A DNA stretch of 61,192 bases from a virus (Duplodnaviria; Caudoviricetes). Of this stretch, positions 1-32,758 are shown one piece after another. The notes below the pieces were generated by a model that saw only the letters and a program-made list of their open reading frames with translations, was not told the origin of the DNA and did no database searches. The first letter of the stretch is position 1. Each line of letters begins with the position of its first letter. The position numbers and the translations under genes were made by a program. The stretch lies in the IMG/VR virus record IMGVR_UViG_3300031669_000025, positions 1 through 61,192 of that record; one strand, given 5' to 3'.

Positions 1-200
1 AATGTTTTATATTTGTTGTTATGTTCTTTTAAAAATGGGGATATGATGCAGTAATGTATCATCGACAAACATAATCTTCTATAACCTCTGGGAATCGGCA
101 CGTTATGGAGTGAAAGAGATGCCAAACTGAAACAGGACGCTAAAAGCCGATATATAGCCGAGTAGGTTGGTCTGGTGCGATAATGCCCCATTTTTATTGA

Positions 201-331
201 ACATAACGGCTGGCAATAAGAAATGTATGGGATTTAGAAGCAGTAACCTATCCCACTACACGAAATTAAATTAAAGGCACAACTGCACAATTTGGCACTG
301 ACACCCATATATTTTTTATTGTGTGTTATAG
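201..331. repeat. attC-like hairpin S1
   Basis: ACATAAC-ggctg-GCAATAAGAAATGTATGGG ... CCCATATATTTTTTATTGT-gt-GTTATAG. Confidence 0.8.
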
Positions 332-349
332 CCAGTTAATTTAAAAACT

Positions 350-553
350 ATGAACAAATTATTACTTACATTGAAAAGAGATTATAACGATTCAATTACT
401 TTAGTCGCAAATAATCACAAAGATTTAGAAGATTACTTACGTTCCAATTATGATTTTCATAAAATAACAGTAAGAGACGATTCTGTTAGTATTGTTGCTC
501 GTGAAGGTTATGAAACAGAGTTTGGAACGCTTGAATGGATACGCCACGTTTAA
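350..553 (+). CDS. Hypothetical cassette protein (67 aa)
   Basis: ORF fills cassette 325-564; its stop lies in the terminal inverted repeat. Confidence 0.8.
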   Translation: MNKLLLTLKRDYNDSITLVANNHKDLEDYLRSNYDFHKITVRDDSVSIVAREGYETEFGTLEWIRHV

Positions 554-557
554 TTGG

Positions 558-799
558 CTATAACGGACGGGAATAAACGACTTTTAAAAATTATACGATG
601 GAATATACAAAAGCAGATTTAAACTGGTTGATGAGCAAAATGGAATGCACATCAGAACGCTATATGGAAGCGGAAAAAATGATAATTGAGATTATAGATA
701 TGCCTTGGTGGAAGCGTCTATTTTGCGGACGCAAACTACTACGCTTCTTAAAAAGCCGAGACAAGTATAATTTTTAATTGCGTTTATTTATTGTTGTGC
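558..799. repeat. attC-like hairpin S2 with an ORF in its loop
   Basis: CTATAAC-ggacg-gGAATAAACGacTTTTAAAAATTATAC ... GTATAATTTTTAAttgCGTTTATTTa-tt-GTTGTGC. Confidence 0.7.
598..777 (+). CDS. Small hypothetical protein (59 aa, not in the ORF track)
   Basis: Translated by hand: MEYTKADLNWLMSKMECTSERYMEAEKMIIEIIDMPWWKRLFCGRKLLRFLKSRDKYNF*. It has an A-rich leader and exactly fills the hairpin loop. Confidence 0.7.
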   Translation: MEYTKADLNWLMSKMECTSERYMEAEKMIIEIIDMPWWKRLFCGRKLLRFLKSRDKYNF

Positions 800-823
800 T
801 TAACGAAGTGGCGTTTTAATGAA

Positions 824-884
824 GCATAACGTATGGTTGTATGATTTCGTTGCTTTTCGCAATGAATTATACAACGTGTTAGTA
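824..884. repeat. attC-like hairpin S3 (61 bp, minimal)
   Basis: GCATAAC-gtatg-GTTGTATGATTTCGTTGC-ttttc-GCAATGAATTATACAAC-gt-GTTAGTA. Confidence 0.85.
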
Positions 885-976
885 GCTGGCGGTTTAATTA
901 CCCACCACCGCCCGAACGAAGCACTAAAAAAAAGAAAAGCGAAGCGTGGGGATTTTTAATTTTAAAACTAGATATT

Positions 977-1411
977 ATGAAAGATTTTGATTCGATTAAA
1001 GGACTAATTAACAAAGATGCCTTACAAAAAAGCATAGATGCTAACACCGATGGATATGGTGGGGCTTGCGTAAATGTTGCAATAAATGTAATGAAGCATT
1101 TAGACGAGTTTAAGGATGAGTTTAACATTGGTTATAACCCAGACATGACAACACCACACGGCATTATTTGCAAATGTGATGACCAGGGAGGGATTACTGG
1201 CTTTATGGCTGGTGCTGCAAGAAATATAATTGCTAATTGCCACGTTTTAGGATGGAAATTTTACTTGGCTGATACATTAAGTCCATACGATATTGAGAGA
1301 GATGAAGATATTGAAAAAGCGATTAAAAATGTTGTAGATGCTAAACTAGTAAGCTACGATGAAGCAAAAGCATACACTGCTGACTTAATTAAAAGATATA
1401 AATCCAAATAA
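977..1411 (+). CDS. Hypothetical cassette protein (144 aa)
   Basis: ORF within cassette 878-1504; contains a GITGFMAG motif; no function assigned. Confidence 0.8.
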   Translation: MKDFDSIKGLINKDALQKSIDANTDGYGGACVNVAINVMKHLDEFKDEFNIGYNPDMTTPHGIICKCDDQGGITGFMAGAARNIIANCHVLGWKFYLADTLSPYDIERDEDIEKAIKNVVDAKLVSYDEAKAYTADLIKRYKSK

Positions 1412-1497
1412 GTTTGAAAAACTTAAAGCGGGTGGGGCTTTTCTTTTTTTGTTCCAATTACGCAGGAACTTTGATACGAGAACTAAACCCCGCTTGC

Positions 1498-1592
1498 TAC
1501 TAACGGTTGGGTGTATGAAACGTAATCTAACCACGAACTTTGATATTAACCACTGAACTATAATAGGTTATGTTTTATACACCTTGTTATGG
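1498..1592. repeat. attC-like hairpin S4
   Basis: TACTAAC-ggttg-GGTGTATGAAACGTAATCTA ... TAGGTTATGTTTTATACACC-tt-GTTATGG. Confidence 0.85.
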
Positions 1593-1634
1593 TTTAGTTA
1601 AAAAATTATTATACAAACTTAAAATAAAAAACAT

Positions 1635-1844
1635 ATGGAAAACAATTTAATGGAAATCGGTAAAAGATTTCATCAACTAAAAAGTGAATTATTACACGGT
1701 GGATACACTGGTGAAATGTTAGAAAATCACATAACAGATGTAATATCTGATGAAATCTTGTCTGAATTAGGTGAGATAGAAAGATATGATGAAGTAAAAA
1801 GAGCGTTAGTTAATATGTTTTTTCTTGGACAACTCTCGAAATAA
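1635..1844 (+). CDS. Hypothetical cassette protein (69 aa)
   Basis: ORF fills cassette 1586-1863. Confidence 0.8.
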   Translation: MENNLMEIGKRFHQLKSELLHGGYTGEMLENHITDVISDEILSELGEIERYDEVKRALVNMFFLGQLSK

Positions 1845-1856
1845 TTTTTTAATTAA

Positions 1857-1950
1857 CCATAACGTATTGCAATATGAAACGGTTGCCTTGTAAGACGTTT
1901 CACAATATAGATGCAGTTTTCTGGCAACTGTTTTATATTGCGTGTTATCG
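1857..1950. repeat. attC-like hairpin S5
   Basis: CCATAAC-gtatt-GCAATATGAAACGGTTGCC ... GGCAACTGTTTTATATTGC-gt-GTTATCG. Confidence 0.85.
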
Positions 1951-1987
1951 GCTGCCTTTATTGTTAAATCATTAAAATATCAAATAA

Positions 1988-2395
1988 ATGAAAAGAGAAA
2001 TATTATTTAAAGGGAAATTATCACATTCAAAAGAATGGATTGAAGGCAATTTAATTATTGCACAAAATGGAAAACCTTACATAATTCCATTTGATGTTAT
2101 TGAACCCGATGGGCATCATTTGATTATTGATTCAGATAATCCATTTTGGGTTGATGAAAATACTATTAGTCAATTTATAAACCAAACCGACAAAAATGGT
2201 AAAAAGATTTTTGAAGGCGATTATGATTCAGATGGTAATTGTATAGTTTGGTGCAAAGAATGTAATGGTTTTGAATTTGCTGCAATAGATTTACCAACGA
2301 AAGATATTTGCATCCCATGTCATAGATGCGATGGAAATTTCTTCTTTGGCGACCAAATAAACGACTTTGAGATTGTAGGGAATGTTGCGGATTAA
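1988..2395 (+). CDS. YopX-family protein (cassette-borne)
   Basis: MKREILFKGK...W..G and TISQF...DKNGKKIFEGD...FEIVGN are YopX signatures; it also has two extra CxxC pairs. Confidence 0.8.
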   Translation: MKREILFKGKLSHSKEWIEGNLIIAQNGKPYIIPFDVIEPDGHHLIIDSDNPFWVDENTISQFINQTDKNGKKIFEGDYDSDGNCIVWCKECNGFEFAAIDLPTKDICIPCHRCDGNFFFGDQINDFEIVGNVAD

Positions 2396-2404
2396 GGTTG
2401 CCGA

Positions 2405-2441
2405 TAACTCGTTTATATATACAGTTCAAAAAATTGAACCA
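2405..2441. other. Array-terminal site T1 (candidate attI-like docking site)
   Basis: TAACTCGTTTATATATACAGTTCAAAAAATTGAACCA; 29/37 ungapped identity to 6715-6751; no partner hairpin arm. Confidence 0.55.
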
Positions 2442-2505
2442 AGAGGAAATCTAACAAAGTAACTTAAAACTAATTTAATGTTTAAATTTACCTATAAATA
2501 ATACA

Positions 2506-2883
2506 ATGAAAAAACTAATTTTAATATTACTCCTATTAATACCTATAACTATATTCTCAAGTCCTCTTCATATTGGTCATGCTAAAGTATATGTTAAATA
2601 TTGTATTACTTCAGATAGACATGATACCTATGATGAAGAAAGTAACTATATAAGAGAATATTGTTCTAATAATGTTCAAGTATTTTATTTCTTTAATAGT
2701 AATAATACTTGCTATGAACAAACTACATTCTATGATAAGTCTATCCTTGCTAAACTTTATACTCAACTATCTAGTTTAACACCTGTTACAACTAATATTT
2801 GGATTGATACTAGTAATGGAGTATACTATGAATTATTAATACAAGATAAAGATACCTATTTCTGTATAAGAAATTGGAAATAA
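2506..2883 (+). CDS. Hypothetical exported protein
   Basis: N-terminal signal peptide MKKLILILLLLIPITIFS. Confidence 0.7.
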   Translation: MKKLILILLLLIPITIFSSPLHIGHAKVYVKYCITSDRHDTYDEESNYIREYCSNNVQVFYFFNSNNTCYEQTTFYDKSILAKLYTQLSSLTPVTTNIWIDTSNGVYYELLIQDKDTYFCIRNWK

Positions 2884-2935
2884 TAAATTACTATGAAAAA
2901 AGCATACTTATAGTGTATTAACACCTTGTTAAAAT

Positions 2936-3163
2936 ATGAGAGCATTTATAATAAAACACAGAGGTAAATCAAGATGGCAAAATATGGTATTTGATAGAGA
3001 AATAACTTTTTCTGATAAAGATAAAATATATGCAGGATTATTATTTTTTAGAAAGAAAGATGCTCAAAAATATCTTGAAACATATCAATATAAAGAATAC
3101 TATGAAGTCATTGGTGTGACTATTGATGATTCTAGTAAAGATAATAGGTTTACAAAAACTTAA
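2936..3163 (+). CDS. Hypothetical protein
   Basis: ORF in co-oriented gene run. Confidence 0.65.
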   Translation: MRAFIIKHRGKSRWQNMVFDREITFSDKDKIYAGLLFFRKKDAQKYLETYQYKEYYEVIGVTIDDSSKDNRFTKT

Positions 3164-3190
3164 ATTTATAATTCATAAACTTTAAATACA

Positions 3191-3412
3191 ATGACAAATG
3201 AACAAATTTATAAAAAGGTAGTGGGACATAAGCCAAATAAAAAGTTTGGTATAAAAGGCTCATTTAGTTGGGATGATATAAATAAATTAATGAATGAAAC
3301 AATAGAAAATTACATCATATCTAATGGTATAAAACTTTATTCCCAAGAAGAAATTGATATGGTTTATGATAAAGGTTTTGAAGATGGATGTATTTATTTA
3401 GCAAATAAGTAA
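3191..3412 (+). CDS. Hypothetical protein
   Basis: ORF in co-oriented gene run. Confidence 0.65.
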   Translation: MTNEQIYKKVVGHKPNKKFGIKGSFSWDDINKLMNETIENYIISNGIKLYSQEEIDMVYDKGFEDGCIYLANK

Positions 3413-3427
3413 TAAATTTTAAATGTA

Positions 3428-3634
3428 ATGAAACATCAATTTAATATTAGAAGAAGAAGCTATGTTTCAGTAATAACTCCAGAAATAGAGTATATTGTAG
3501 AACATAAGAATATAGGTTATAAATCTAACTTTATATCAGCAAAGTTAAGTATGAAACCTACAACAGTAAGTTATATCCTTAAAAGATATACACTTAAAGA
3601 TAAGAATAACAAGTATATAATGCATAATAAATAA
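3428..3634 (+). CDS. Small basic protein, possible HTH
   Basis: ISAKLSMKPTTVSYIL resembles an HTH recognition segment; its stop overlaps the polymerase start. Confidence 0.5.
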   Translation: MKHQFNIRRRSYVSVITPEIEYIVEHKNIGYKSNFISAKLSMKPTTVSYILKRYTLKDKNNKYIMHNK

Positions 3635-5508
3635 TGATTCATTTCATAAGCACACAAAAAATCATAGAAACAGATGAAATAAGAGAATCTACTGTAGAGG
3701 AAGCATTAAATTATCTTAATAATTTAGATATAATTGGATTAGATTTAGAAACTACGGGATTTGATCCATATAAAGATAAAATATTATTAATGCAATTAGG
3801 TGATAGAGAGAATCAATATGTTATAGATACAATTACAGTAGATATTCTTATTTTTAAAGAATTACTAGAAAGTGATAGGTTATTTATAGGTCAAAATATA
3901 AAATTTGATTTAAGATTTTTATTAGTTCAAAAAATTATAGTAAAAGATGTTTATGATACCTATATTGTTGAAGAAATTTTATATAATGGTATTGTAGGAA
4001 TAAGAAAAAGTTTAGATTATATAGCAGAAAGATATTGCAAAGTATTTCTTGATAAATCTATTAGAGGAAATATTCATAGAGAAGGAAATTCTTATAGAGT
4101 TATAAGATATGCAGCTGATGATGTAAAGTATCTACATGAAATTAGAGAGAAACAGTTACTAGATGTATATAAAAAGGATTTAAATAGATCAATAGAACTT
4201 AATAACTTATTTGTTCCAGTTCTTGCCTATGTTGAAATATCTGGATTTACTTTAGATAGTAGCAAGTGGAAAGAAAAAATGAGACAAGATAAAATAGAAT
4301 TAGAATCTAGACTAAATATTTTAAATAATTATATACTTGATAATAAAATAGACCAATTTATAGAGAAACAACTAGATTTATTTAATTCTAATACTACAGT
4401 TACAATAAATTGGAAATCTCCAAAACAAGTTGTAGAATTTCTAAAAATTATAGGTATTGATTCTAGGGAATTAGATAAAGATTCTGGAGAATTAAAATGG
4501 AAAGCAAATGCTACAGTATTACAGAAGAAAATAAGTGAAAATCCTATTATATCTACATTTATAGAGTATGGAGAATATTATAAAAAATGTTCTACTTATG
4601 GGGAGAACTTTTTAAAACAAATCCATCCTATAACTGGAAAATTACATACTAAGTTTCAACAATGGATGAAAACTGGTAGAATGTCTTCAGGTGGGAAGGA
4701 TAAAAGTGCTAATATTGAATATATAAACTTTCAAAATATCCCAGCAGATAGTGAAACTAGAAGTTGTTTTGTTGCTTCTGAAGGTAATATATTAATAGAT
4801 GCAGATTATTCTGGCCAAGAACAAATAGTTTTAGCTAATAAGTCCTTAGACCCAAATATTCTAGAGTTTTATGATAAGAAATTGGGAGATATGCATTCCT
4901 ATATTGCTAAATTATGTTTTAAAGAAGAGTTAGAAGGTATTGAACTCAGTGATGTAAAGAAGTTAAGACCAGATTTAAGACAACTTGCTAAAGCAGCAGG
5001 TTTTGCGATAAATTATGGTGGCAATGGATTTACTATAGCAAACAATTTAAATGTATCTCAAGATTTAGGAGATAAAGTATATGAAGCATATTTTAAAGCA
5101 TTTCCAGGATTAAAGAATTATTTTGATGGTGGATATAAAAATGCTAAAATGAGACATTATATTCTTTATAATGAAGTTACCAGAGATAAATTCTTTATTC
5201 CTTATTCTATGAAGGATGGGGAAATAAAAAGAGCATCAATGAATTTTCCTATACAAGGAACATCAGCTTCAATTACTAAATATGCAGCAATTTTATACTA
5301 TAGAAAATTACTAGAAAGAAATTTACTTTTTAAAATATTTATACCTAATATAATTCATGATGAAATTATACTAGATTGTCCTAAAGAAATAGCAAATGAA
5401 GAAAGTATAGTATTAAAACAATGTATGGAAGATGCAGGAGTAAGATTTAACCAAACTAGAGTTCCATTGTATGCAGAACCATGTATTACAGAATTTTGGA
5501 AACATTAA
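3634..5508 (+). CDS. polA: Family A DNA polymerase with 3'-5' exonuclease domain
   Basis: ExoI DLETTG, ExoII NIKFD, ExoIII YAADD; TGRMSS; motif A DADYSGQE; motif B RQLAKAAGFAINYG; NFPIQG; motif C IHDE. Confidence 0.97.
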   Translation: MIHFISTQKIIETDEIRESTVEEALNYLNNLDIIGLDLETTGFDPYKDKILLMQLGDRENQYVIDTITVDILIFKELLESDRLFIGQNIKFDLRFLLVQKIIVKDVYDTYIVEEILYNGIVGIRKSLDYIAERYCKVFLDKSIRGNIHREGNSYRVIRYAADDVKYLHEIREKQLLDVYKKDLNRSIELNNLFVPVLAYVEISGFTLDSSKWKEKMRQDKIELESRLNILNNYILDNKIDQFIEKQLDLFNSNTTVTINWKSPKQVVEFLKIIGIDSRELDKDSGELKWKANATVLQKKISENPIISTFIEYGEYYKKCSTYGENFLKQIHPITGKLHTKFQQWMKTGRMSSGGKDKSANIEYINFQNIPADSETRSCFVASEGNILIDADYSGQEQIVLANKSLDPNILEFYDKKLGDMHSYIAKLCFKEELEGIELSDVKKLRPDLRQLAKAAGFAINYGGNGFTIANNLNVSQDLGDKVYEAYFKAFPGLKNYFDGGYKNAKMRHYILYNEVTRDKFFIPYSMKDGEIKRASMNFPIQGTSASITKYAAILYYRKLLERNLLFKIFIPNIIHDEIILDCPKEIANEESIVLKQCMEDAGVRFNQTRVPLYAEPCITEFWKH

Positions 5509-5523
5509 TTAAATAAACTAATT

Positions 5524-5820
5524 ATGGGACAAGCAGTAAGTAAAAAGATCGTAGAATATCTAACCTACGAGGAGTTCAAGCAGCAACTGAAACTTCTCGA
5601 AACTACATCAACAACCAATTTTTTCAGGGATGTTCCAGTATACATTTCCAGTGATGGTAAAGGATGTATTATTGCTCTAATAGGTAACTTTATTTATTTT
5701 AATAAAGAGGATATTCTTATTGTAGATGAAATAGGTGATAATCCCCTTAAAGCCATCACCAAGGAGCAGTTCAATGAGGACTATACTCCCATTGAGGAGA
5801 TAAAGGTTAACCCAGTTTAA
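5524..5820 (+). CDS. Hypothetical protein
   Basis: 98-aa ORF. Confidence 0.65.
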   Translation: MGQAVSKKIVEYLTYEEFKQQLKLLETTSTTNFFRDVPVYISSDGKGCIIALIGNFIYFNKEDILIVDEIGDNPLKAITKEQFNEDYTPIEEIKVNPV

Positions 5821-5925
5821 AAACTAAAGATATGGAAGTAAAAGAATTTATTGGAGAAAAGGTAGTCTATGATGATCTAGATTAGTTTACGTATAATTAG
5901 TATATAATGTTCATTAAAAATTGTA

Positions 5926-6055
5926 CCCTAACGTTAAGTATATGGCAAGGTGGGGATTAAAACGTGCTGCCCTATCGAGCCAAAAGAAAGTAAATTAACA
6001 GCACAAATATTGCAAACTGGAATACGCCCCCAATTTGCTATATACATTGTTAGGG
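5926..6055. repeat. attC-like hairpin S6
   Basis: CCCTAAC-gttaa-GTATATGGCAAggTGGGG ... CCCCAatTTGCTATATAC-att-GTTAGGG. Confidence 0.75.
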
Positions 6056-6074
6056 TGCGTTTATTCTTATTAAA

Positions 6075-6401
6075 ATGGAAGCAAAAGAAGAAAAATTTAA
6101 AATAGAGGTAAGATTCTCAAAAAATAGACACTACCCTGAATATGGAAGTGAAGCATATAGTATTGAAAGCCATTCTATTTATATTCCGTATGGTAAAAGA
6201 TTTGATTTTAAAAATAGTAGCAGGGCAATAGAATTTATAAAAGGCAGAATTGATTCAAAAGTTTTAGAACATTTCGATTCTGTTTGCATAACAAAATGGC
6301 GTGGTTACGGAGGAACTTACGAATATTTGAAGGAATGTAAAGAAAAAAGCGACACCAAACCAATTGATAAAGAATTTGCTGAAAGTATACTGTTTTTTTA
6401 A
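6075..6401 (+). CDS. Hypothetical cassette protein (108 aa)
   Basis: ORF fills cassette 6049-6413. Confidence 0.8.
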   Translation: MEAKEEKFKIEVRFSKNRHYPEYGSEAYSIESHSIYIPYGKRFDFKNSSRAIEFIKGRIDSKVLEHFDSVCITKWRGYGGTYEYLKECKEKSDTKPIDKEFAESILFF

Positions 6402-6406
6402 ATGCA

Positions 6407-6536
6407 CCCTAACGGTTGCAAATATAAAATCGGTGGGATTTTACTCACCGACTTTGATAAATTGAATTAATGTAACTTAAACAGACTGGGCTAACAAGAC
6501 CACTAACACCCCACTGTTTTATATTTGTTGTTATGT
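6407..6536. repeat. attC-like hairpin S7
   Basis: CCCTAAC-ggttg-CAAATATAAAAtCGGTGGG ... CCCACTGTTTTATATTTG-tt-GTTATGT; the right arm matches the partial site at 3-24. Confidence 0.85.
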
Positions 6537-6549
6537 GGCGTTAATTATT

Positions 6550-6717
6550 ATGGACTGCCAACGACCAGTAAAAAACAAAGAAACAAACCAATGGGAAGTA
6601 TGGGATTTTGCTTACGAAGAAAATGGCGAAAGATACTATGAACTTCATAAGTTTTTTACATACAAAGAGGCTATTGATTTTTGGAAAGTTAGAAATCAGA
6701 AACTTAATGCCACATAA
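6550..6717 (+). CDS. Hypothetical cassette protein (55 aa)
   Basis: ATG at 6550 preferred over GTG 6535, which lies in the repeat; the stop TAA is the TAAC core. Confidence 0.75.
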   Translation: MDCQRPVKNKETNQWEVWDFAYEENGERYYELHKFFTYKEAIDFWKVRNQKLNAT

Positions 6718-6751
6718 CTAGTTTATAACCTTAGCTAAAAAAATTGAACCA
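6715..6751. other. Array-terminal site T2 (candidate attI-like docking site)
   Basis: TAACTAGTTTATAACCTTAGCTAAAAAAATTGAACCA; paralog of 2405-2441. Confidence 0.55.
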
Positions 6752-6809
6752 CATGAAAAGTGTCGAATCTATTGAATAAGATTTTAACTCATACATAAAA
6801 ACTAAAGAT

Positions 6810-7154
6810 ATGAAAAAGTTACTATTATTACTATCATTATTGCTACTATTTACTACAATTAATGCTACAGAAAAAAACATTCAATCAGTTGTAATAGTAA
6901 ATAATAATGTTAAATTAGGTAATGGATTTTATTCAATACCTAAACATTATAAATATACAATGAAACAAAAAGTAATACATTGTATAATTGCAGAAGCTAT
7001 AATATTTGCAATAGGTGAATATGCTATTAAAACTAGAAATGCACAATTATGGAATGCTGATGGTATTCTCTTTGTAGCATCTATTCCTGCTAATATTATA
7101 TATTTGAATAATTACAAAAGACCTATTGGTTGTAGTGGAATGAATAATCCTTAA
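6810..7154 (+). CDS. Hypothetical membrane/exported protein
   Basis: Signal peptide plus two hydrophobic segments. Confidence 0.7.
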   Translation: MKKLLLLLSLLLLFTTINATEKNIQSVVIVNNNVKLGNGFYSIPKHYKYTMKQKVIHCIIAEAIIFAIGEYAIKTRNAQLWNADGILFVASIPANIIYLNNYKRPIGCSGMNNP

Positions 7155-7157
7155 ATT

Positions 7158-7448
7158 ATGAATTTTAACTCATTTAAAAAGCATTTCAATAAATTATCTA
7201 TATGCTTAGATATTGCAGATATTGAGTTAAAAACTATATGGAATGATTTACCTCTAACTGATGATAAGAAAGCAAAAGAAGTCATTAAGAGAGGTAAATC
7301 TTTCAATATAGCACTCAATAGTTGGATTAATAGTATGGATAATAAGAATATTAGTGAAGATGCTAAACTATCATTAGGTAAGATGTATGATGATGTTAAT
7401 GACATTATTGATGAATATTTTGATGAACTTTATAAAGAAAGAAAATGA
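7158..7448 (+). CDS. Hypothetical protein
   Basis: ORF with overlapping start/stop junction to the next gene. Confidence 0.7.
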   Translation: MNFNSFKKHFNKLSICLDIADIELKTIWNDLPLTDDKKAKEVIKRGKSFNIALNSWINSMDNKNISEDAKLSLGKMYDDVNDIIDEYFDELYKERK

Positions 7449-7756
7449 GTTTCTTAAATAAATATGTAAAAGCAGTAGAAGATTATTATGGTAAACCTAT
7501 GATATATACACCTCAAGATGGAAAGGGAAGAAATGCAAGAATTGACTTAGAAATGGTTAGAATGCTAATTTTACTTTTAAATGAAGAAGAGGGATTAAAA
7601 TACAGTGAAATAGCTCTTTTATTACCCTTTAAAAAGAAAAGATTAGCTCTCCGTAATGATTCTATAATTGCATCTGATTTATATAGATTAGATAGGTTTT
7701 TTAGAAAAAGATATAGTGAAATTTTACAAACTATTCCTAAAATTATTATAGAATGA
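7445..7756 (+). CDS. Hypothetical protein, possibly DnaA C-terminal/TrpR-like HTH
   Basis: VEDYYG...R.MLI.LL.EEEGLKYSEIA...D..F pattern recalls DnaA domain IV. Confidence 0.45.
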   Translation: MSFLNKYVKAVEDYYGKPMIYTPQDGKGRNARIDLEMVRMLILLLNEEEGLKYSEIALLLPFKKKRLALRNDSIIASDLYRLDRFFRKRYSEILQTIPKIIIE

Positions 7757-9054
7757 CAAGAGAAGAAATACAACAACAAGCATTAAATATTGCTAAAGAA
7801 CATAATTATACTGGTATTCTATGTTTAGATATGGGTAGTGGTAAGTCTAAAGTAGCAATAGATTGTATTAAACAGGGTAGTTTTAAAAATATTCTTATTA
7901 CTAGTCCTAGAACTAATTTAAAAGAGATGTGGAGAAAGGAACTAGCTAAATGGGGCATAAAAGACTATAGAGTTGGCATAGATCCTACAGAAATTGTACC
8001 TAAATTTGATAAAATACTATGGAGATATAATGATATTTTTCTTAATATAACTATTGAAAATATACAAACTTGTTACAAATGGACTAAAGAAAAAATTAAA
8101 CAATTTGATTTAATAATTTGTGATGAAGTTCATTTAATAGCAACTCTAGAATATGGTCAATTAATTATTAATGCTAGAGAACTTAATATTCCTGTTATTG
8201 GACTTACTGGAACTCTTAACTTAGAAGATACTTTTAAGAAAGAATTTTACAATACACATATTCCAATATTACTTGAATATTATGATAGTGCAAAAGATGG
8301 ATTAATTAATAAGAGGCACTATTATATTTATAAGTATAAGTTAGATGATAGTTATAAGATAATAACAGGTAGTAAGAAAAAGAAATGGCAAGTAGGAGAA
8401 TTATCTCAATATTCTTACTTAACAGAACAAATCAAAAAAGGTCAAAAATTAATGGCTCAAACAGGAAGTCAAGATTGGTTTAAAGATGCCGCAGATTGGT
8501 TTTGGAAAGGTAATGGAACTACTACAGAAAAGAATGCAGCAAGAATTTATTTACAAGCTATTAAGTATAGAAAAGAATTTCTATGGAATTTGAGTAGCAG
8601 TGCAGATATTGCTGTTAGAATAAAAAATAGAATTCTTGATACAAAAACTGAGAATAAAGTATTACTATTTTCTGAATTAACTACTCAAGCAGAGAAACTT
8701 TCAGCATATTCTATCCACAGTAAACAAGATGAAGACACTAATAAAGAACTTCTTCATATGTTTGATAGTGGTAATATTAAAGAATTAAGTGCTGTTAGAA
8801 GTCTTTCATTAGGTCTTAATTTAGTTGGGGCAAATTGGGCTATTTTAGAAAGTTTTAATAGTAGTTCTACTGATATACTACAAAAAATGGGTAGAACAAA
8901 CCGTTTAGATACTAATGAGGTAGCTAATATTGTAATTATTGTTCCTGTAGAAACACAATCAGAAACTTGGTTTAATAAATTTATTGAGGATATAAATGAG
9001 AGAGACCCTGATATGGCCGTTAGTTATATTAATTCTATTAATGAAATTATATAA
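7753..9054 (+). CDS. Superfamily II (DExH) helicase
   Basis: Walker A MGSGKS, DEVH, GLTGT, motif VI QKMGRTNR. Confidence 0.93.
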   Translation: MTREEIQQQALNIAKEHNYTGILCLDMGSGKSKVAIDCIKQGSFKNILITSPRTNLKEMWRKELAKWGIKDYRVGIDPTEIVPKFDKILWRYNDIFLNITIENIQTCYKWTKEKIKQFDLIICDEVHLIATLEYGQLIINARELNIPVIGLTGTLNLEDTFKKEFYNTHIPILLEYYDSAKDGLINKRHYYIYKYKLDDSYKIITGSKKKKWQVGELSQYSYLTEQIKKGQKLMAQTGSQDWFKDAADWFWKGNGTTTEKNAARIYLQAIKYRKEFLWNLSSSADIAVRIKNRILDTKTENKVLLFSELTTQAEKLSAYSIHSKQDEDTNKELLHMFDSGNIKELSAVRSLSLGLNLVGANWAILESFNSSSTDILQKMGRTNRLDTNEVANIVIIVPVETQSETWFNKFIEDINERDPDMAVSYINSINEII

Positions 9055-9323
9055 TGAGCAACATAGAAATAAAGTTAGATAATGTGGAAAATACTACTTT
9101 ATCTGTAACTTATAATTATGAATTTACTCCTGGATTATGGACTTATCCTAATGGTGATCCTGGTTATCCTGAATTTGAAAATATTAATATTGTAACAATA
9201 CTAACTAATCAAGATATAACAGATATGTTGTATTCTTATAAAACTTGTCCAAATATTATTGAAGAAATAGAGGATAAAATTTCAGAATATGAAAGAAATA
9301 AAAGAATTACAGGAAAAGAATAA
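9054..9323 (+). CDS. Hypothetical protein
   Basis: ORF with YPNGDPGYP motif. Confidence 0.65.
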   Translation: MSNIEIKLDNVENTTLSVTYNYEFTPGLWTYPNGDPGYPEFENINIVTILTNQDITDMLYSYKTCPNIIEEIEDKISEYERNKRITGKE

Positions 9324-9543
9324 ACTTAGAAATGTATCACCCAATGCACTAGGAGAACTTATTTCTATTGCACAACATACATTAGGTGGAGTTTCTGATT
9401 ATATTGAGATAAGTAATTTTATAAGAAATAGATTTAATGCTAATGTTAGCAGAGATGATATAGTAAACTATTTTACACCAATTATCTGTGAGATAGAAAG
9501 TGAATTGTTATATAAAACTTATGGTTATGATAAAACTGTTTAG
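9289..9543 (+). CDS. Hypothetical protein
   Basis: ORF in gene run. Confidence 0.6.
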   Translation: MKEIKELQEKNKLRNVSPNALGELISIAQHTLGGVSDYIEISNFIRNRFNANVSRDDIVNYFTPIICEIESELLYKTYGYDKTV

Positions 9544-9877
9544 ATTTCAGTATAAGGAAGATTATGTAAAATTTCTTAATGAACTGAAATCATTAAAAGT
9601 ATTAACTGGAGAATTAGAATTGTTAGAATATGCTTTGCTTGAATATAAAGCAAGTAAATATATCCCAAGAGAATCTACTGCTAGAGGATTCTGTTTATAT
9701 TTTATGAATCAATTTGGTATAGATTCTTTATATTATCATTTACCTACTCTTTATAGACAAAAGTCTTGGTATAAAGATGCAAGTGAACATTGGTGGAAAC
9801 CAGGTAAATTAAATCCTAGAATTAGGGCGCTAAAAGGGGCTATTAAACTATATAAAAAGATACATAAGGTAAACTAA
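9521..9877 (+). CDS. Hypothetical protein
   Basis: ORF; start probably ATG 9521 or 9527 rather than GTG 9500. Confidence 0.6.
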   Translation: MVMIKLFRFQYKEDYVKFLNELKSLKVLTGELELLEYALLEYKASKYIPRESTARGFCLYFMNQFGIDSLYYHLPTLYRQKSWYKDASEHWWKPGKLNPRIRALKGAIKLYKKIHKVN

Positions 9878-9972
9878 TCTAATCTAATACATTATGAACA
9901 AAATAAACACAAGTAAATACAATTAGTTATAAAAATTGGATATTAAGGCCTTACTAAAACTGTATATAAATT

Positions 9973-10503
9973 ATGAATATTTTAAGTATTGATTTAGATT
10001 TAATGAAGGAATCTGGGTTATTTCCTGATGAATTTATGCTAATAAGTATAATAAATTCAGGAATTAATCCAGATTTATTTCAATGGAGAGAAGATATGAT
10101 TCAGAGTATGAAAGATACTCTATGGATTGATAAACCATTGGATGAATACATTTTAAGAAGTAAAAGTTTAGAAATTTTGGAAAAACCAAATAATTCTATT
10201 AACTTTGACGAGTTTTGGGATTCTTTTCCAACTCAAACTAATAAAGGAAGAGTGCTTAGAACAACTAGTAAAGAATGGGGTGGTAAACCAACTAGAGATT
10301 ATCTAGTTTGTAAAAAGAAGTATTTAAGTAAAGTTAAAACACCTGAAGCACACAAAAAGATTGTAGAAATTATTAAGGCTAGAGTTATTTCTAATGATAC
10401 AGAATATATGAATAACTTAGAAACTTATATAAATCAGGCAATTTGGGAAAGAGATATAAAATATATTCTTATGGTGCAAGATTGGGCTAATAAAAGAGTA
10501 TGA
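9973..10503 (+). CDS. Putative replication initiator/helicase loader
   Basis: FDEFWDSFP and YMNNLETYINQAIWE motifs of phage replisome-organiser C-termini; overlaps the DnaB start. Confidence 0.65.
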   Translation: MNILSIDLDLMKESGLFPDEFMLISIINSGINPDLFQWREDMIQSMKDTLWIDKPLDEYILRSKSLEILEKPNNSINFDEFWDSFPTQTNKGRVLRTTSKEWGGKPTRDYLVCKKKYLSKVKTPEAHKKIVEIIKARVISNDTEYMNNLETYINQAIWERDIKYILMVQDWANKRV

Positions 10504-11612
10504 GTTTATTTAAAAGTGTTCAAGAACAAATTATTGAAAATAAAAGATTAAGAGAGTCAGGTAAAGATATATCAATACCTTTTCCTTTCCCCAGATTTTC
10601 TGAGGAAATCCCTGGTATTCAAAAAGGTAGATATATAATTACAACTGCTGCTAGTAAGATTGGTAAGACTAAGTTTACTGATTCTCTTTTTCTTTATAAT
10701 CCTTATAGATTTACTAAGGAAACTAGCACAAATATTAAAATAAAAGTTCTTTACTTTAGTTTAGAAATGAGTAAAGAAGATAAAGTTAAGGAAGCAATAT
10801 CATATTTTCTATATATAAAGAAAAATATTAGATTGACTCCAGATAAGATGGATTCTATTTTTAAGAAGTATATCTTAGAAAATAGTGTTGTTAAAGCCAT
10901 AGAAGAAATTCAGCCTACAATGGAAGAATTTTTAGATTTAGTAACATTCATAGATCATACAAGAAATCCATATGGAATATATAAAACAGTTAGAGACTAT
11001 GCTCATGCTAATGGCTACTATGTAGATGGCAAAGGATATAGACTTAATACAGAATGGATTGAAAAAGGTTTAAATGAAGAGGCCAAAAAGATATTTAAAT
11101 ATATTCCAAATAATCCAGATGAATTTGTTATAGTTATTACAGATCATGTTAGTTTATTAACTCCAGAAAATCAGGATACTCTGCATGAGGCAATGGGTAA
11201 ATTTTCATCCCAGTATTGTTTGAGTATAAGAGATAGATGGAAGTATATTGTAGTTAATGTTCAGCAACAGGCTGCTGCAATGGAGAGTGTAGAAAATGCT
11301 CAAGCTAATATGCTTAGACCATCTGCTAATGGATTAGGAGATAACAAATTAACTGGTAGAGATTGTGATATGATGTTAGGATTATTTTCTCCATATAGAT
11401 TTAGAAGAAGAGAATGGGAAGGATATGATATTACTAAATTACAAGATTCTTATAGAGAACTTTCTGTAATATTAAATAGAAGGGGAAGTACTGTTATGAC
11501 TGATTTATATTTTGATGGTGGTGTAAACTATTTCAAAGAATTATCTAAATCAGTAGATATGACTCAAGCTTTATACACACAATTAATAGAACGAGATATT
11601 AAAATAAAATGA
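10500..11612 (+). CDS. dnaB: DnaB-like replicative helicase
   Basis: Walker A AASKIGKT, YFSLEM, Walker B VITDHVSLL, QQ motif, late LNRRG. Confidence 0.9.
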   Translation: MSLFKSVQEQIIENKRLRESGKDISIPFPFPRFSEEIPGIQKGRYIITTAASKIGKTKFTDSLFLYNPYRFTKETSTNIKIKVLYFSLEMSKEDKVKEAISYFLYIKKNIRLTPDKMDSIFKKYILENSVVKAIEEIQPTMEEFLDLVTFIDHTRNPYGIYKTVRDYAHANGYYVDGKGYRLNTEWIEKGLNEEAKKIFKYIPNNPDEFVIVITDHVSLLTPENQDTLHEAMGKFSSQYCLSIRDRWKYIVVNVQQQAAAMESVENAQANMLRPSANGLGDNKLTGRDCDMMLGLFSPYRFRRREWEGYDITKLQDSYRELSVILNRRGSTVMTDLYFDGGVNYFKELSKSVDMTQALYTQLIERDIKIK

Positions 11613-11908: not shown

Positions 11909-12397
11909 ATGCCAGTTAATGTAAGATTTATATCTGATTTACATTTACAACATAAGAATATGGCTATTCATAGGGGATTTAAAGATGAATTTAAATGTGA
12001 TGAATTCATTATAGATTCTTGGAATAGTATTGTTAAATCACCTAAAGATTTAACTTATATTCTTGGAGATATTGCTATGGAAAAATCATCTTCATACTAT
12101 ATCTTAGATAGATTAGTAGGTAGAAAAGTAGTAATACTTGGAAATCATGAGATGAAACAACATATTAGGGAACTGCTTAACTATGTTGAAAATGTTGCGG
12201 GAATGATAGATTATTATGGCTTTGCATTAACACATTGTCCTATACATCCAATTGAGTTAGAAAGATACAGAGGTAATATACATGGTCATACACATGAAGC
12301 AATATATGAAGATAAAAGATACATAAATGTATGTGCAGAAGTAATTAACTATCAACCTAAAACCATTGAAGAATTAATTGCATTATATAAACTATAA
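11909..12397 (+). CDS. Calcineurin-like metallophosphoesterase
   Basis: SDLH, LGD, GNHE, THCP, HGHTH motifs. Confidence 0.93.
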   Translation: MPVNVRFISDLHLQHKNMAIHRGFKDEFKCDEFIIDSWNSIVKSPKDLTYILGDIAMEKSSSYYILDRLVGRKVVILGNHEMKQHIRELLNYVENVAGMIDYYGFALTHCPIHPIELERYRGNIHGHTHEAIYEDKRYINVCAEVINYQPKTIEELIALYKL

Positions 12398-13954: not shown

Positions 13955-16348
13955 ATGAATAGAAATTATTATTGTAAAGTTGATTCTCAAGAAGAAGCAG
14001 ATACTTTACTAGAAGAATTAAAAGAATTAGGTGAAAAAATAGAAACTAAATATCTATATGATCCTTTATGGACATATATCAGTTTTAATAAAGAAAAACT
14101 AACTTGGGGTTTACTTAGTAGAAGTTACATTGGTAGTAATGCAATGCTAGTAAAATCTTCAGAATTAATATCTTATGTAAAAGGAGAAACACCTGAAACT
14201 AAATTTATAGTTGGTAAATGGTATAAGAATCTTGGTTCACCTAAAATTTACACAGCAAAATTTAGTTTTATTGATAGTAATAATATTTTTTGCACTACAG
14301 ATGCTGGATATATTTATGGAAGGAAATATGAATTAGCTACTTCAGAAGGAAGAATAACACCCAACTATAAAGATGCAATAGAATGTTCTTTAGAAGAAAT
14401 ACAAGATTATTTACCATTTAATCACCCTGATAAGTTAACTAAGAAAACTGAAGAGTTTGTATTACCTGATAGATGGCATGTTGTAGTTACTGAAGAAAAT
14501 CAGGAAATTCTATCAAGGTGGAGAGAATACTTGGGTATGCTTCCTATAGATAATATTGTAGGTATTTGTAATAAAGATGGAAACAAAGGTAATAATCCTA
14601 AAAGTAGTTTAGTAGGAAAAGATTATGATTTTGGTAAAGAAATAACCTTTGACCAATTTAAGAAATATGTTCTTAAAGATCAAGTAAAATCCAATAATAA
14701 GTTTGAGGTTGGAAAGTGGTATAAAGATGACAACTGGACTTCAAACTCTTATGCTAAATTTCTTAGATTAGAAGATGATAGATTCTATTTTTCTGAAAGA
14801 ATTAAAAATTGGTATAAAAAAGTAGAAAGTTGGTGGAGAATAGATGATAAAACTATTTGTAAAGAAGTATCATTGGAAGAAATACAGCAATATCTTCCTG
14901 AAGGACATTCTGATAAGATTGTTAAGAGTATTAAAAAATGGAGTGTTGGAACCTATGTTGTTTGTGTAACAAATTATGGTGCATATAGTAGAATTGGGGA
15001 TATAGATAAAATAGATAGAATTGTTGATAAAGACCCAAGACTGGAAAAAGAAGGAATATTTGCTCAGGAAGATGATTGGTTTAGATGGTTTCCTACATTA
15101 AAAGAAGCAGAAGAATTCTCTAAAACTATTAAACCTATGACAACTAATAAATTAGAATTAAATAAGTGGTATAAAGATAAATTAAGCTATAATCAACTAG
15201 TTTTTAGAACAAATAAGTCTGGGGGATATGGATTTGTTGATGATATTTGGAGTAACAGTTTATCCTGTCAATCTACTAGAGAATGGATTTTAGCAGATGA
15301 AAAAGAAGTTAAAGAAAGATTATTAAAATATGCTGATAATAAATATAGTCTAGGAAAAGGAAATACTAGGGGAACTACTATTAAAAGTAAATTTGATGAA
15401 AGTGGTAAATATTCTTTAAATGATGCTAAAATACATATATCTCGTGAAGATAATGATCCTTATGGAATTAGAGGTGGTGGAGCATGTTTATACTCAAATG
15501 GTAACTGGGCTGAAATAATTACAATTCCTAAAACTGATACTACATTACAATTTCCAATGATTACTGACAAGGATTATAAAGTTGGAGATGTAGTTGAAAT
15601 TACTAATTTAGGTAAAATTTATTCTACTTTTGATTCTGTGTTTAAAGAAGTAGGATTTAGAAATACTGTAAGTAATTCTATTGAAAATAGTAAGACTGGT
15701 AAAATTTTTCATATTTGTAAACATTCATTTAATAGTTTAACATTGCTATCACTTAATCTAGATGATGGTGCTCAGGTTCTTATTAGTAAAGATGGAGTAA
15801 AACATAAAGAATCAGATAATTATCAAGTAGGAGATTGGGTATTTATTACTGGAAAAAATGCAGGTAATGGATTAGAGTATCATGGTAAAGAAGATGGTAT
15901 ATTTCAATTATTAGAAATAGATATAAGTAAGAATCCATCAGGTAATTTACGTAGTATTTCTCATTTTATGTTTAAGTTTAAAGAAAATTATTTTCTAACT
16001 AATAAAAAACATATACTTAGAAAAGCAACGTTTGATGAGGTTGTTAAAATTTTAGAACCTAATTTAAAACAATATGGTCAATTACTTGAGGAAAAGGCAC
16101 TACAAATCTTAAATCCTGTAAATGATTTAATTGGATTAGGATTTACTGGTGGCCCTGATTATTCTCATTATACATCAGTTCCATCTTATGACTATGGAGT
16201 TTATAATATTTATATTGATCCAGTAGAATATTCTATTAAACCTTCATTATTTACTAAGAAAGAGAAAACAAAAGTTCCTTCTTTAATGAGTAAGGAAAAG
16301 ATTGATGTTAAAATTATTAAAACAAAAGCAAAACAAATTAAACTTTAA
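13955..16348 (+). CDS. Large modular hypothetical protein with tandem small beta-domains
   Basis: Recurrent FxVGKWYK / YxVGDxV starts and a duplicated SLEEIQxYLPxxHxDK. Confidence 0.75.
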   Translation: MNRNYYCKVDSQEEADTLLEELKELGEKIETKYLYDPLWTYISFNKEKLTWGLLSRSYIGSNAMLVKSSELISYVKGETPETKFIVGKWYKNLGSPKIYTAKFSFIDSNNIFCTTDAGYIYGRKYELATSEGRITPNYKDAIECSLEEIQDYLPFNHPDKLTKKTEEFVLPDRWHVVVTEENQEILSRWREYLGMLPIDNIVGICNKDGNKGNNPKSSLVGKDYDFGKEITFDQFKKYVLKDQVKSNNKFEVGKWYKDDNWTSNSYAKFLRLEDDRFYFSERIKNWYKKVESWWRIDDKTICKEVSLEEIQQYLPEGHSDKIVKSIKKWSVGTYVVCVTNYGAYSRIGDIDKIDRIVDKDPRLEKEGIFAQEDDWFRWFPTLKEAEEFSKTIKPMTTNKLELNKWYKDKLSYNQLVFRTNKSGGYGFVDDIWSNSLSCQSTREWILADEKEVKERLLKYADNKYSLGKGNTRGTTIKSKFDESGKYSLNDAKIHISREDNDPYGIRGGGACLYSNGNWAEIITIPKTDTTLQFPMITDKDYKVGDVVEITNLGKIYSTFDSVFKEVGFRNTVSNSIENSKTGKIFHICKHSFNSLTLLSLNLDDGAQVLISKDGVKHKESDNYQVGDWVFITGKNAGNGLEYHGKEDGIFQLLEIDISKNPSGNLRSISHFMFKFKENYFLTNKKHILRKATFDEVVKILEPNLKQYGQLLEEKALQILNPVNDLIGLGFTGGPDYSHYTSVPSYDYGVYNIYIDPVEYSIKPSLFTKKEKTKVPSLMSKEKIDVKIIKTKAKQIKL

Positions 16349-31501: not shown

Positions 31502-31623
31502 TATTATAGAATTAATATTAAATGTATTCATAGATGTTATAGTTGGAGTAATTGTTGGTATTATATTAGCTATGATTATAATATGGATTCATGATAAATT
31601 ATTTAAGAAACATTGGAAATAAT

Positions 31624-31974
31624 ATGAATAACAAAATAATTTATTTATGTATACCTTATAGTTGGAACCCAGAAAAATCATTTGAGATAGCAAATAAAGT
31701 TACTGCTAAATTAATGCAAGAAGGTAATATTGTATTTAGTCCTGTAAGTCATTCACATCCAATATCTTTGGAAATGCAGGACTATTTACAAACTAATCAT
31801 GATTTTTGGATGAGTCAAGATTTACCTATGCTTGAAAGATGTGATGAATTATTAGTAGTAATAATAGGTGAAGAAGGGCCAAATTTAATTAGTAATAGTA
31901 AAGGATGCCAAGCAGAAATTAATACTGCTAATACTTTTGGTATGCCTATTAATTATATTGAATATTATGAGTGA
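31624..31974 (+). CDS. DUF1937 / nucleoside 2-deoxyribosyltransferase-like protein
   Basis: IYLCIPYS, VFSPVSHSH, W...D..ML..CD, SKG...E. Confidence 0.8.
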   Translation: MNNKIIYLCIPYSWNPEKSFEIANKVTAKLMQEGNIVFSPVSHSHPISLEMQDYLQTNHDFWMSQDLPMLERCDELLVVIIGEEGPNLISNSKGCQAEINTANTFGMPINYIEYYE

Positions 31975-32299
31975 ATTAGCAGATAGGAAAAATGATGGAA
32001 AATTAAGATGGAGAAATTTTCCTCTTTTTTTAATGAGACCTTTAGCACAAGTAGCACAATATGGTGAAGGAAAGTATGATATGTACAATTTCTTAAAAGG
32101 TGGTTCACAAAATCAATATTTAGATTCTTTAAAAAGACATTTAGATTCTTATGAAGACCCTAAACAAAGTGATCTTGATTCTGAGAGTCAACTTAACCAT
32201 TTATATCATGTTGCTTGGAATGCATTAGTTGGAGCATATATGTTGGAAAATTTTCCAGAGTTAGATGATAGATTTAAATTAGAGAAAAAAGATGAATAA
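31967..32299 (+). CDS. DUF5664 dATP/dGTP diphosphohydrolase-like protein
   Basis: KNDGKLRW, YGEGKYD..N...G, SLKRH, DSESQLNHLYHVAWNA, DDR. Confidence 0.85.
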   Translation: MSELADRKNDGKLRWRNFPLFLMRPLAQVAQYGEGKYDMYNFLKGGSQNQYLDSLKRHLDSYEDPKQSDLDSESQLNHLYHVAWNALVGAYMLENFPELDDRFKLEKKDE

Positions 32300-32585: not shown

Positions 32586-32758
32586 CTATGAATGAACTAG
32601 AGAAAGAACATGATGAACTTACTACATTTCTTATTTCTTGGGCTAAGAAATATGATTATTTTCTAGATGTTGATGTTCAAGATGAAGAACAGGAGATTAC
32701 ATCAATAAAGATAAATTTAAAAGAAAAGATTGTTTATTTTGATTAATAATTATTAGTT

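Follow-up and report, generated by a model that had tools for sequence, protein, structure and literature searches.

Two arrays of hairpins and small genes in a crAss-like phage genome

The window analyzed here is an entire linear IMG/VR record (IMGVR_UViG_3300031669_000025; 61,192 bases, CheckV completeness 62%) of a tailed phage of the Caudoviricetes, in which small open reading frames (ORFs) of the + strand alternate with hairpins closed by TAAC and GTT, in the manner of integron gene cassettes and their attC recombination sites. Its crAss-like identity, proposed in an earlier note made from the letters alone, was borne out by the Pfam families crAss_MUZ (477 bits), CrAss_Ring_1, CrAss_Ring_2 and crAss_CARG1, together with a BACON domain. 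The alternation was observed in array 1 (1-2441) and in the shorter array 2 (5929-6751), which lies on the far side of a DNA polymerase A gene located between the two. The earlier note had described one array at 1-2441; this end is right for array 1, and the second array had been missed. Array 1 is truncated by the start of the contig, as its bases 3-24 are the same as 6515-6536, the 3' arm of hairpin S8 (6410-6533). The GC content of the arrays is 0.33-0.35 (0.345 and 0.327 in the first 2.4 kb) vs 0.22-0.30 in the phage backbone.

The units (cassettes) and hairpins of both arrays are given below. R1 is a covariance model built from phage hairpins in the ORF-sense orientation; the attC calls come from this custom model and a custom scanner, not from the attC model of IntegronFinder.

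1-21, + strand: truncated hairpin 3' arm, ending in GTT at 18-20, recognized by its identity to the S8 3' arm.
18-207, + strand: unit 1, 190 nt, no + strand ORF of at least 35 aa; flanks GTTATGTTC / GAACATAAC, 5/5 complementary.
204-328, + strand: hairpin S1, attC-like, 125-nt class; fold -10.7 kcal/mol, R1 110.5 bits.
325-564, + strand: unit 2, ORF 350-553 (67 aa); flanks GTTATAGCCAGTTAA / TTAATTGGCTATAAC.
561-796, + strand: hairpin S2, 20-bp stem around ORF 598-777 (59 aa); fold -30.6 kcal/mol, no R1 match.
793-830, + strand: unit 3, 38 nt, ORF-less; flanks GTTGTGCTT / AAGCATAAC, the single mismatch being a G.T pair.
827-881, + strand: hairpin S3, 55-nt class; fold -9.5 kcal/mol.
878-1504, + strand: unit 4, ORF 977-1411 (144 aa) and an added internal hairpin at ~1428-1497; flanks GTTAGTAGC / GCTACTAAC.
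1501-1589, + strand: hairpin S5, 89-nt class; folds, R1 58.8 bits, 85% identical to LR756500.1.
1586-1863, + strand: unit 5, ORF 1635-1844 (69 aa); flanks GTTATGGTT / AACCATAAC.
1860-1947, + strand: hairpin S6, 88-nt class; fold -16.2 kcal/mol, R1 50.4 bits.
1944-2408, + strand: unit 6, ORF 1988-2395 (135 aa, weakly YopX-like); flanks GTTATCGGC / GCCGATAAC.
2405-2441, + strand: end of array 1, TAAC-T-N4-TATATATA and then AAAAAATTGAACCA; candidate attI-like terminal site, 2405-2426 matching the terminal-site form.
5929-6052, + strand: hairpin Sa, which opens array 2; fold -15.1 kcal/mol, R1 96.3 bits.
6049-6413, + strand: unit of array 2, ORF 6075-6401 (108 aa); flanks GTTAGGGTGC / GCACCCTAAC.
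6410-6533, + strand: hairpin S8; folds, R1 76.3 bits.
6530-6718, + strand: unit of array 2, ORF 6550-6717 (55 aa); flanks GTTATGTGGC / GCCACATAAC.
6715-6751, + strand: end of array 2, TAAC-T-AGTTTATAACC...AAAAAATTGAACCA; resembles the array 1 end and fits the terminal-site pattern only partly.

In all eight units, the 5 nt following GTTA (flank a) are the exact complement of the 5 nt preceding the next TAAC (flank a'; pairs 18/207, 325/564, 793/830, 878/1504, 1586/1863, 1944/2408, 6049/6413, and 6530/6718), compared with 8 of 4538 GTTA-TAAC pairs outside the arrays in the window. The complementarity of flanks within the cassette and not within the hairpin, first pointed out in the earlier note, is real and far beyond chance. 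All of the a/a' mismatches observed in the window are G.U-compatible. Additionally, the ORF stop codon falls at a constant spot inside a' (stop, T, 6 nt, TAAC), the start codon lies ~12 nt after a, and at flank position 11 (e.g., 335 with 554) a near-invariant G(a):T(a') pair breaks the complementarity in most units. A reading of the a/a' repeats as ends of invertible segments was discarded, since the ORFs are never flipped.

The hairpin motif TAACG-N8-TAW was found six times in the window where 1.72 matches are expected, and none of 100 shuffles reached six; all of the sites (204, 561, 827, 1501, 1860, and 6410) are on the + strand and inside the two arrays. The partner half, WTA-N6-GTT, is present at 316-327, 784-795, 869-880, 1577-1588 and 1935-1946, with further copies at 9-20 and 2415-2426; by itself it is not enriched in the window (180 vs 175.5 expected). 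All seven hairpins fold with DNA parameters, the + strand being stabler than its complement in each case, and leave ~5 unpaired nt after TAAC and ~2 before GTT, a basal asymmetry of 3 nt. Both the TAAC/GTT hairpins alternating with small ORFs and the asymmetric loop next to the core had been described correctly.

Regarding the content of the units, those at 18-207 and 793-830 have perfect flanks and no ORF, and are either ORF-less cassettes or remnants. Likewise, S2 is either an attC-like site with a coding tip or a loop carrying an insertion. Exactly the whole of unit 2 is 69% identical to positions 11927-12175 of locus L012, where other hairpins stand on both sides. For the 144-aa ORF 977-1411 no Pfam or PHROG match was obtained, and tblastn against GenBank phages gave none either. 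The product of ORF 1988-2395, earlier assigned to YopX, scored 19.1 bits against a Pfam cut-off of 22.4 and is therefore sub-threshold for that family, while two PHROGs do match it (phrog_8684, E 1.5e-17); tblastn against GenBank phages gave only matches of 30-41% identity. ESM Atlas scores for the cassette proteins reached 0.84 and are leads only.

The hairpins belong to families shared with other phages

The hairpins had been considered diverse in sequence; they belong instead to conserved families, with copies 74-100% identical in other phages. BLAST detected S1 and S5 copies in two phages with similar arrays, one of 45 kb (OP947161) and one of 462 kb (LR756500.1). When IMG/VR was searched with the common flank TTAATTGGCTATAAYG, it yielded 102 stretches, roughly half of them true arrays as judged by eye, and 146 unique hairpins were collected from these stretches with the custom scanner. 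S1 has copies in nine other loci (74-90% identical), in which the similarity begins directly after TAAC, and S6 has copies in L007, L023, L049, and L067 (78-91%). S3 matches L106:13410-13465 at 100% identity over 56 nt, with different flanks on both sides.

In the class of 120-130 nt, 57 hairpins could be aligned end to end, and 16 of the 21 stem pairs covary, one conserved G.U pair being among the features of this class. The ~70-nt tip of the 125-nt class (e.g., 232-300) keeps GGATT, CTATCAA and CAC.AAAACC, with no predicted pairing, in phage and bacterial copies alike. A promoter in the hairpin loop was considered and dropped, given that the loop motifs are also present in bacterial copies antisense to their ORFs.

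The flank complementarity was also observed in the other phage loci, where 60 of 92 consecutive hairpin pairs had at least 6/8 complementary flank bases; the same was true of 90 of 2000 random pairings and, when the two flanks of one hairpin were compared, of 3 of 146. In a second, independently gathered phage set, at least 4/5 of the flank bases were complementary in 173 of 210 units.

The ends of the similarity between copies were analyzed for 49 pairs of cores from different loci, each pair sharing at least 80% identity. On the left, similarity stopped 0-2 nt past TAAC in 42 of the 49 pairs; on the right, it stopped 0-3 nt past GTT in 30 and 12-18 nt past it in the other 19. The sharp left breakpoints fit a crossover on the TAAC side. 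Loci L050 and L106 have a common ORF end and a'-TAAC, followed by different hairpins. In the metagenome from which the phage probably comes, the summed contig depth of the hairpin modules was far above that of the backbone (e.g., 270 vs 9.8). The joints found in metagenome contigs, with sides of 20-34 nt, show only the same noncoding modules around other ORFs.

Relatives of the DNA polymerase A gene were found in one IMG/VR locus (49% identical) and in five metagenome loci (32-53%), with one hairpin detected in total across the six. When all the loci retrieved in this analysis were compared with each other by BLAST, indel polymorphisms appeared only in array-free loci.

The phage cassettes are inverted with respect to those of integrons

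On the ORF-sense strand, the 146 unique phage hairpins contain 240 G.T pairs vs 29 A.C pairs, under a scoring that treats both equally, and have a 5' spacer ~3 nt longer. In the second phage set, the counts were 426 G.T and 77 A.C in 269 unique hairpins. The reverse applies to canonical attC sites next to intI when their top (ORF-sense) strand is read: 35 A.C vs 1 G.T in 41 sites, with a 3' spacer 3-4 nt longer. Moreover, R1 matches these canonical sites on the bottom strand only and weakly (E 0.002-0.74). The pair bias, the geometry and the strand of the R1 matches together indicate that the + strand of the window corresponds to the bottom strand of integrons and, therefore, that the phage cassettes are inverted.

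The orientation of the ORFs was in agreement. In the phage cassettes, the ORF is on the folding strand in 60 of 68 (one opposite, six ambiguous, one ORF-less), and of the 173 cassettes of the second set, 137 have it on the same strand, 3 on the opposite one, 14 are ambiguous and 19 lack an ORF. By contrast, in 9 of 11 bacterial cassettes of this hairpin family the ORF lies on the non-folding strand, and two are ambiguous; the pair bias of the bacterial copies (28:10) is weaker than that of the phage copies (240:29). By analogy with integrons, the crossover would be expected at TAA/C, to the left of each hairpin, and the hairpin would travel with the ORF downstream of it. The earlier note had proposed G/TT, on the right of the hairpin, where no crossover would be expected for these inverted sites.

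A compact recombinase adjoins such arrays in other phages

In two large phage contigs, a Xer/IntI-like tyrosine recombinase of 268-269 aa is encoded directly downstream of the array. They share 62% identity with each other and 44% with a 346-aa recombinase abutting a large array in genome G017. Their closest structures are those of XerA, matched over the full length (E 1e-34 and 2e-32), and the alignment to IntI4 covers residues 19-179 only, ending just before the IntI insert. The scores of 216 bits with NF040815 (cut-off 220) and 203 bits with TIGR02249 (cut-off 265) are both below the cut-offs, and the TIGR02249 alignment runs in two stretches that skip model positions ~180-250, with ~45-55 residues of the IntI insert missing.

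Relatives of this recombinase are encoded in 216 IMG/VR stretches, of which the best 80 were used for counting array positions. In these loci, 242 of 242 R1 matches were on the recombinase strand and 239 lay upstream of the gene. In all 53 loci whose upstream sequence reaches 1.5 kb or more, hairpins were present there; downstream, they were present in only 5 of 75. A terminal site, defined as TAAC, a non-G base, 1-5 nt and TATAT or ATATA within 220 nt of the gene, precedes the recombinase gene in 48 of the 53. In the window, the end of array 1 has this form, and its 14-mer AAAAAATTGAACCA recurs only at 6738-6751, the end of array 2. This terminal sequence, TAAC-T..TATATA, may be the counterpart of attI. 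In many loci (L278, L282, L284, L288, L293, L294, L296, and others) the recombinase gene is at most a few hundred bases from the contig end on the array side. Assemblies may break at the repeated hairpins; in the window, too, the contig begins partway through array 1.

The same hairpins and other cargo in Bacteroidota chromosomes

Among 401 sampled genomes of the phylum to which a hairpin-bearing Leeuwenhoekiella genome belongs, 113 exceeded the curated cut-off of TIGR02249, the canonical integrase model. In the genuine arrays beside intI of this phylum (the sedentary chromosomal integrons L252, L253, L255, L256, and L257) every cassette has exact 9-mer flanks of the form GTTAnnnnn...nnnnnTAAC, which supports the reading of the phage flanks as an integron cassette signature. 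The same flank signature is found in the Bacteroidota arrays L268-L272, which belong to the same hairpin family, with R1 scores of up to 109 bits. At E ≤1e-6, R1 matched 41 of 70 IntI-positive genomes and 30 of 70 IntI-negative ones, often in clusters. Among the 30 IntI-negative, hairpin-positive genomes, 16 encode homologues of the phage-type recombinase (E ≤1e-45), and in 13 of these 16 the homologue is on the same contig as R1 matches, at most ~12 kb away. A tyrosine recombinase, for which the earlier note suggested looking upstream of the window or in the host, is absent from the window; in other phages and in bacterial genomes one adjoins such arrays.

Three bacterial arrays carry AIPR, two ThsB-type TIR proteins, SLATT, YLATT, GmrSD, RHS and metabolic enzymes. 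In the phage cassettes, which encode proteins of 36-394 aa, 62 of 69 ORFs had no Pfam match at E ≤0.001; the remaining seven include a DNA methylase, RtcB, an Rv2179c-like exoribonuclease and DUF7768, the others being weak matches. The proposal of a phage-specific cassette pool was supported, as both the ORF strand and the cargo differ from those of bacterial cassettes of the same hairpin family. DUF7768, which is cassette cargo at L067:7541-7861 in another phage, is also found in the window outside the arrays, in an ORF at 31591-31974 with DUF1937/DUF7768/nucleoside 2-deoxyribosyltransferase-like domains.

Three other chromosomal loci were recorded. In L273-L274 (genome G084, contig 3), a ~20-kb array of the hairpin family is located between nuo (NADH dehydrogenase) genes, and no recombinase was found within the 40 kb examined. 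In L268 (genome G021), a canonical intI (429 bits) and an array of the family (5964-10508 and 14233-15333) are 3.7 kb apart; the array reads towards intI and not away from it, and the two may be unrelated. In L143 (chromosome of Leeuwenhoekiella sp. A16), positions 1040-5040 contain tandem hairpin units with similar T-rich spacers of ~340 nt and no clear ORF; their a/a' flanks match, and this genome has no IntI over the cut-off.

In the rest of the window, a free-standing GIY-YIG/NUMOD3 homing-endonuclease-like ORF was observed amid the replication genes (18353-18985). No Rfam family reached its gathering score in the whole window, and a search of 1-7000 at E ≤10 gave chance-level matches only; no tRNA or tmRNA was detected in the window.

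Interpretation of the arrays

According to the available text on IntegronFinder (10.1101/030866), a cluster of attC sites lacking integron-integrases (CALIN) has at least two attC sites less than 4 kb apart on one strand and no integron-integrase nearby. Array 1, with five hairpins and a truncated one, and array 2, with two, have all of them on the + strand and no integrase. The hairpin anatomy, its covariation, the strand bias, the flank complementarity, the breakpoints, the homologues and the association of recombinase with terminal site, all observed directly, make it probable that these are two integron-type cassette arrays without a recombinase of their own in the sequenced part, i.e., CALINs of a platform with inverted cassettes. 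The arrays may also be active in this phage.

In the proposed mechanism, each hairpin would be an attC-like site, with pairing TAAC/GTTA cores, an asymmetric spacer, a long covarying stem and a variable tip, that would fold as single-stranded DNA on the ORF-coding strand, the counterpart of the recombinogenic bottom strand of canonical attC. A cassette on the + strand would then read C-G-hairpin-GTTA-a-short leader-ORF-a'-TAA, and once the cassette is excised as a circle, pairing of a' with a would close the hairpin base, which would explain why the ORF is bracketed by its own complementary flanks. In other phages, complete platforms consist of the array, the terminal TAAC-T..TATATA, ~30-60 nt, and the gene of the ~270-aa recombinase on the same strand. 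The recombinase would exchange strands at TAA/C, new cassettes would enter at the terminal site, and the cargo would be small accessory or early genes. For this phage, the enzyme could come from the unsequenced 38% of the genome, from a co-infecting phage or from the host; a platform of inverted cassettes that the Xer/IntI-like recombinase family or a host IntI would service is the best-supported reading.

Several results weigh against this interpretation. No tyrosine recombinase of any family was found in the 61 kb (74 ORFs searched with Pfam, and a targeted search at E ≤1), and neither array end in the window precedes a recombinase gene. Canonical IntI (TIGR02249) was over its cut-off in none of 26 array-bearing records, and the enzyme associated with the arrays elsewhere lacks the IntI insert, so the statement that the phage itself uses an integron-type system was not supported as made. 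Six of the virus records, at least 90% complete (CheckV), do not have even a weak match, which implies that many phages carry arrays without any recombinase. In the host phylum, the hairpin family is only weakly linked to canonical IntI. Extrahelical bases are central to strand choice by IntI; the consensus of the 57 aligned hairpins has a 1x1 mismatch and no fixed bulge, and by eye, single hairpins show bulged bases in the 5' arm, while for the canonical attC of L253 and L256 such bases are in the 3' arm of the bottom strand. The polymerase relatives are too distant to show gain or loss of cassettes between near relatives, and neither circular cassettes nor excision junctions appeared in the data from sequencing runs, which consisted of contigs. 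Finally, the sense-strand fold would also form in mRNA, and an RNA role alongside recombination is possible.

Alternative explanations

In the first alternative, the hairpins would be RNA signals only, i.e., terminators, RNase III-type processing sites or mRNA stabilizers between small early genes. The units would be shuffled by homologous recombination among co-infecting phages, as has been proposed for the PeSL stem-loops (promoter plus terminator) of T4-like phages, and a/a' would tie the mRNA ends. The stable fold does lie on the transcribed sense strand with G.U pairs tolerated, the a/a' mismatches of the window are compatible with this pairing, and the bias is stronger in phages than in the bacterial copies. 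An identity of 74-100% between hairpins of unrelated phages suffices for homologous exchange, and PeSL-mediated shuffling is documented, as far as the available text goes (PMC4122927). However, in the bacterial arrays, with 9 of 11 ORFs antisense, the mRNA would carry the poorly folding strand; the stop codon inside a' and the start codon ~12 nt after a mean that translation would melt an mRNA panhandle; the similarity between copies ends at TAAC (42 of 49 pairs) and not within the hairpin; and arrays end at a dedicated site beside a tyrosine recombinase, with hairpins upstream in 53 of 53 phage loci. A scan for sigma-70 promoters and intrinsic terminators gave no excess, although Bacteroidota promoters are outside its range. 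An exclusively RNA-level function is unlikely.

It is about equally improbable that the cassettes are genuinely of the attC type but relics, a block acquired from another phage and immobile without a recombinase. The contig has no recombinase, the array 2 end fits the terminal site only partly, units 1 and 3 are ORF-less and unit 4 contains a degenerate hairpin, the GC content is unlike that of the backbone, and the six distant DNA polymerase A relative loci have one hairpin among them. Against long decay, the eight units all keep 5/5 complementarity and the seven hairpins all fold; the 100% identity of S3 over 56 nt to a copy in another phage points to recent exchange; and the contig, 62% complete, begins inside array 1.

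Movement of the hairpins as single-strand transposon ends or REPIN-like elements by a HUH (Y1) transposase inserting 3' of TAAC, as in IS200/IS605 and REP/RAYT, is very improbable: it would suit the strand-specific fold with G.T pairs, the fixed tetranucleotide left of every hairpin, the high copy number in one metagenome (depth 270 vs 9.8) and the presence of Y1_Tnp in 3 of 5 hairpin-bearing bacterial genomes, but Y1_Tnp (PF01797) was found in 0 of 20 array-bearing viral records, the window included, the enzyme that accompanies the arrays is a Xer/IntI-type tyrosine recombinase, and the unit-specific a/a' complementarity and ORF alternation are integron features, verified beside intI, which to our knowledge are not features of REPINs.

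Comparison with known systems

As probable CALINs of inverted cassettes, the arrays share with integron arrays and known CALINs, those of virulent phages included, the AAC/GTT cores closing an imperfect hairpin, the asymmetric unpaired spacer, a variable tip of 55-130 nt, one-strand folding, cassette-end complementarity, co-oriented and mostly single small ORFs of no known function, and DNA methylases in the cargo. They differ in that the phage ORFs are on the folding (bottom) strand, with the hairpin preceding the ORF, there is no IntI, and the recombinase beside such arrays in other phages is insert-less, its gene lying at the end of the array and sharing the strand of the cassettes. Moreover, no clear extrahelical bases were observed, and a pairs with a' over up to ~15 nt, a conserved G.T included. 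Compared with a canonical integron, the window has the attC cores, hairpin, spacer and tip, with geometry and bias that mirror those of the 41 attC sites beside intI. An IntI with its additional domain was found neither in the window nor in the 26 array-bearing records; and instead of attI and Pc beside intI with ORFs reading away on the top strand, the ORFs of complete phage platforms read towards the recombinase. In the integrons and arrays of the host phylum, as in the phages, the integrase-proximal end is the 3' end in the hairpin (bottom-strand) orientation, whereas the bacterial cassettes are larger and carry defence-like (AIPR, ThsB-TIR, SLATT, GmrSD) and metabolic genes on the strand opposite to the fold. 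The array-associated recombinase resembles XerA over its full length and IntI partially (PDB 4a8e, 5hxy, 2a3v), but is below both curated cut-offs and lacks the IntI insert.

PeSL, in the part of the description consulted (PMC4122927), are likewise short conserved stem-loops between small variable ORFs in plastic regions of lytic phages, shared among them and marking indel boundaries. They are described with homologous recombination and an early promoter, whereas the sites analyzed here have cores, complementary flanks, a terminal site and a tyrosine recombinase.

Phage CALINs are already published: in the available text of Qi et al. (2023, PMC9892861), 17 were reported in 10,705 genomes, in virulent phages including Polaribacter phage P12002L, and IntI1 recombined one P12002L attC site. 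These results support the present reading: the hairpin family occurs in that genome (KR136259) beside its methylase genes, with hairpins at 38035-38090, 38879-38936, 32223-32281 and 32491-32695, one of which may be the attC site assayed. In a study of epsilon-crAss phages, as far as its available text goes (PMC11054128), IntegronFinder was run for an integrase and none was found. Our literature search retrieved no description of crAss-like cassette arrays, of the inverted orientation, of an insert-less recombinase at the array end or of the terminal site.

Implications

Integrons are regarded as bacterial devices. The same architecture is now found in a crAss-like phage and in many IMG/VR contigs, where phage CALINs had seemed rare, and the opposite orientation of the cassettes is a simple, checkable rule for separating phage from bacterial cassettes in metagenomes. 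The compact recombinase, the hairpin and the entry site make up a set that can be tested at the bench.

More tentatively, Bacteroidota phages might run an integron-like platform of their own, with an insert-less XerA/IntI-like recombinase, a terminal entry site and a phage pool of inverted cassettes, while host chromosomes would stockpile anti-phage defence cassettes in the opposite orientation with the same attC family. Attack and defence would then use one recombination currency, and crAss-like phages would carry arrays serviced in trans. If the platform is active, it would give lytic phages a site-specific route for swapping small accessory genes, and would help explain their plastic ORFan regions.

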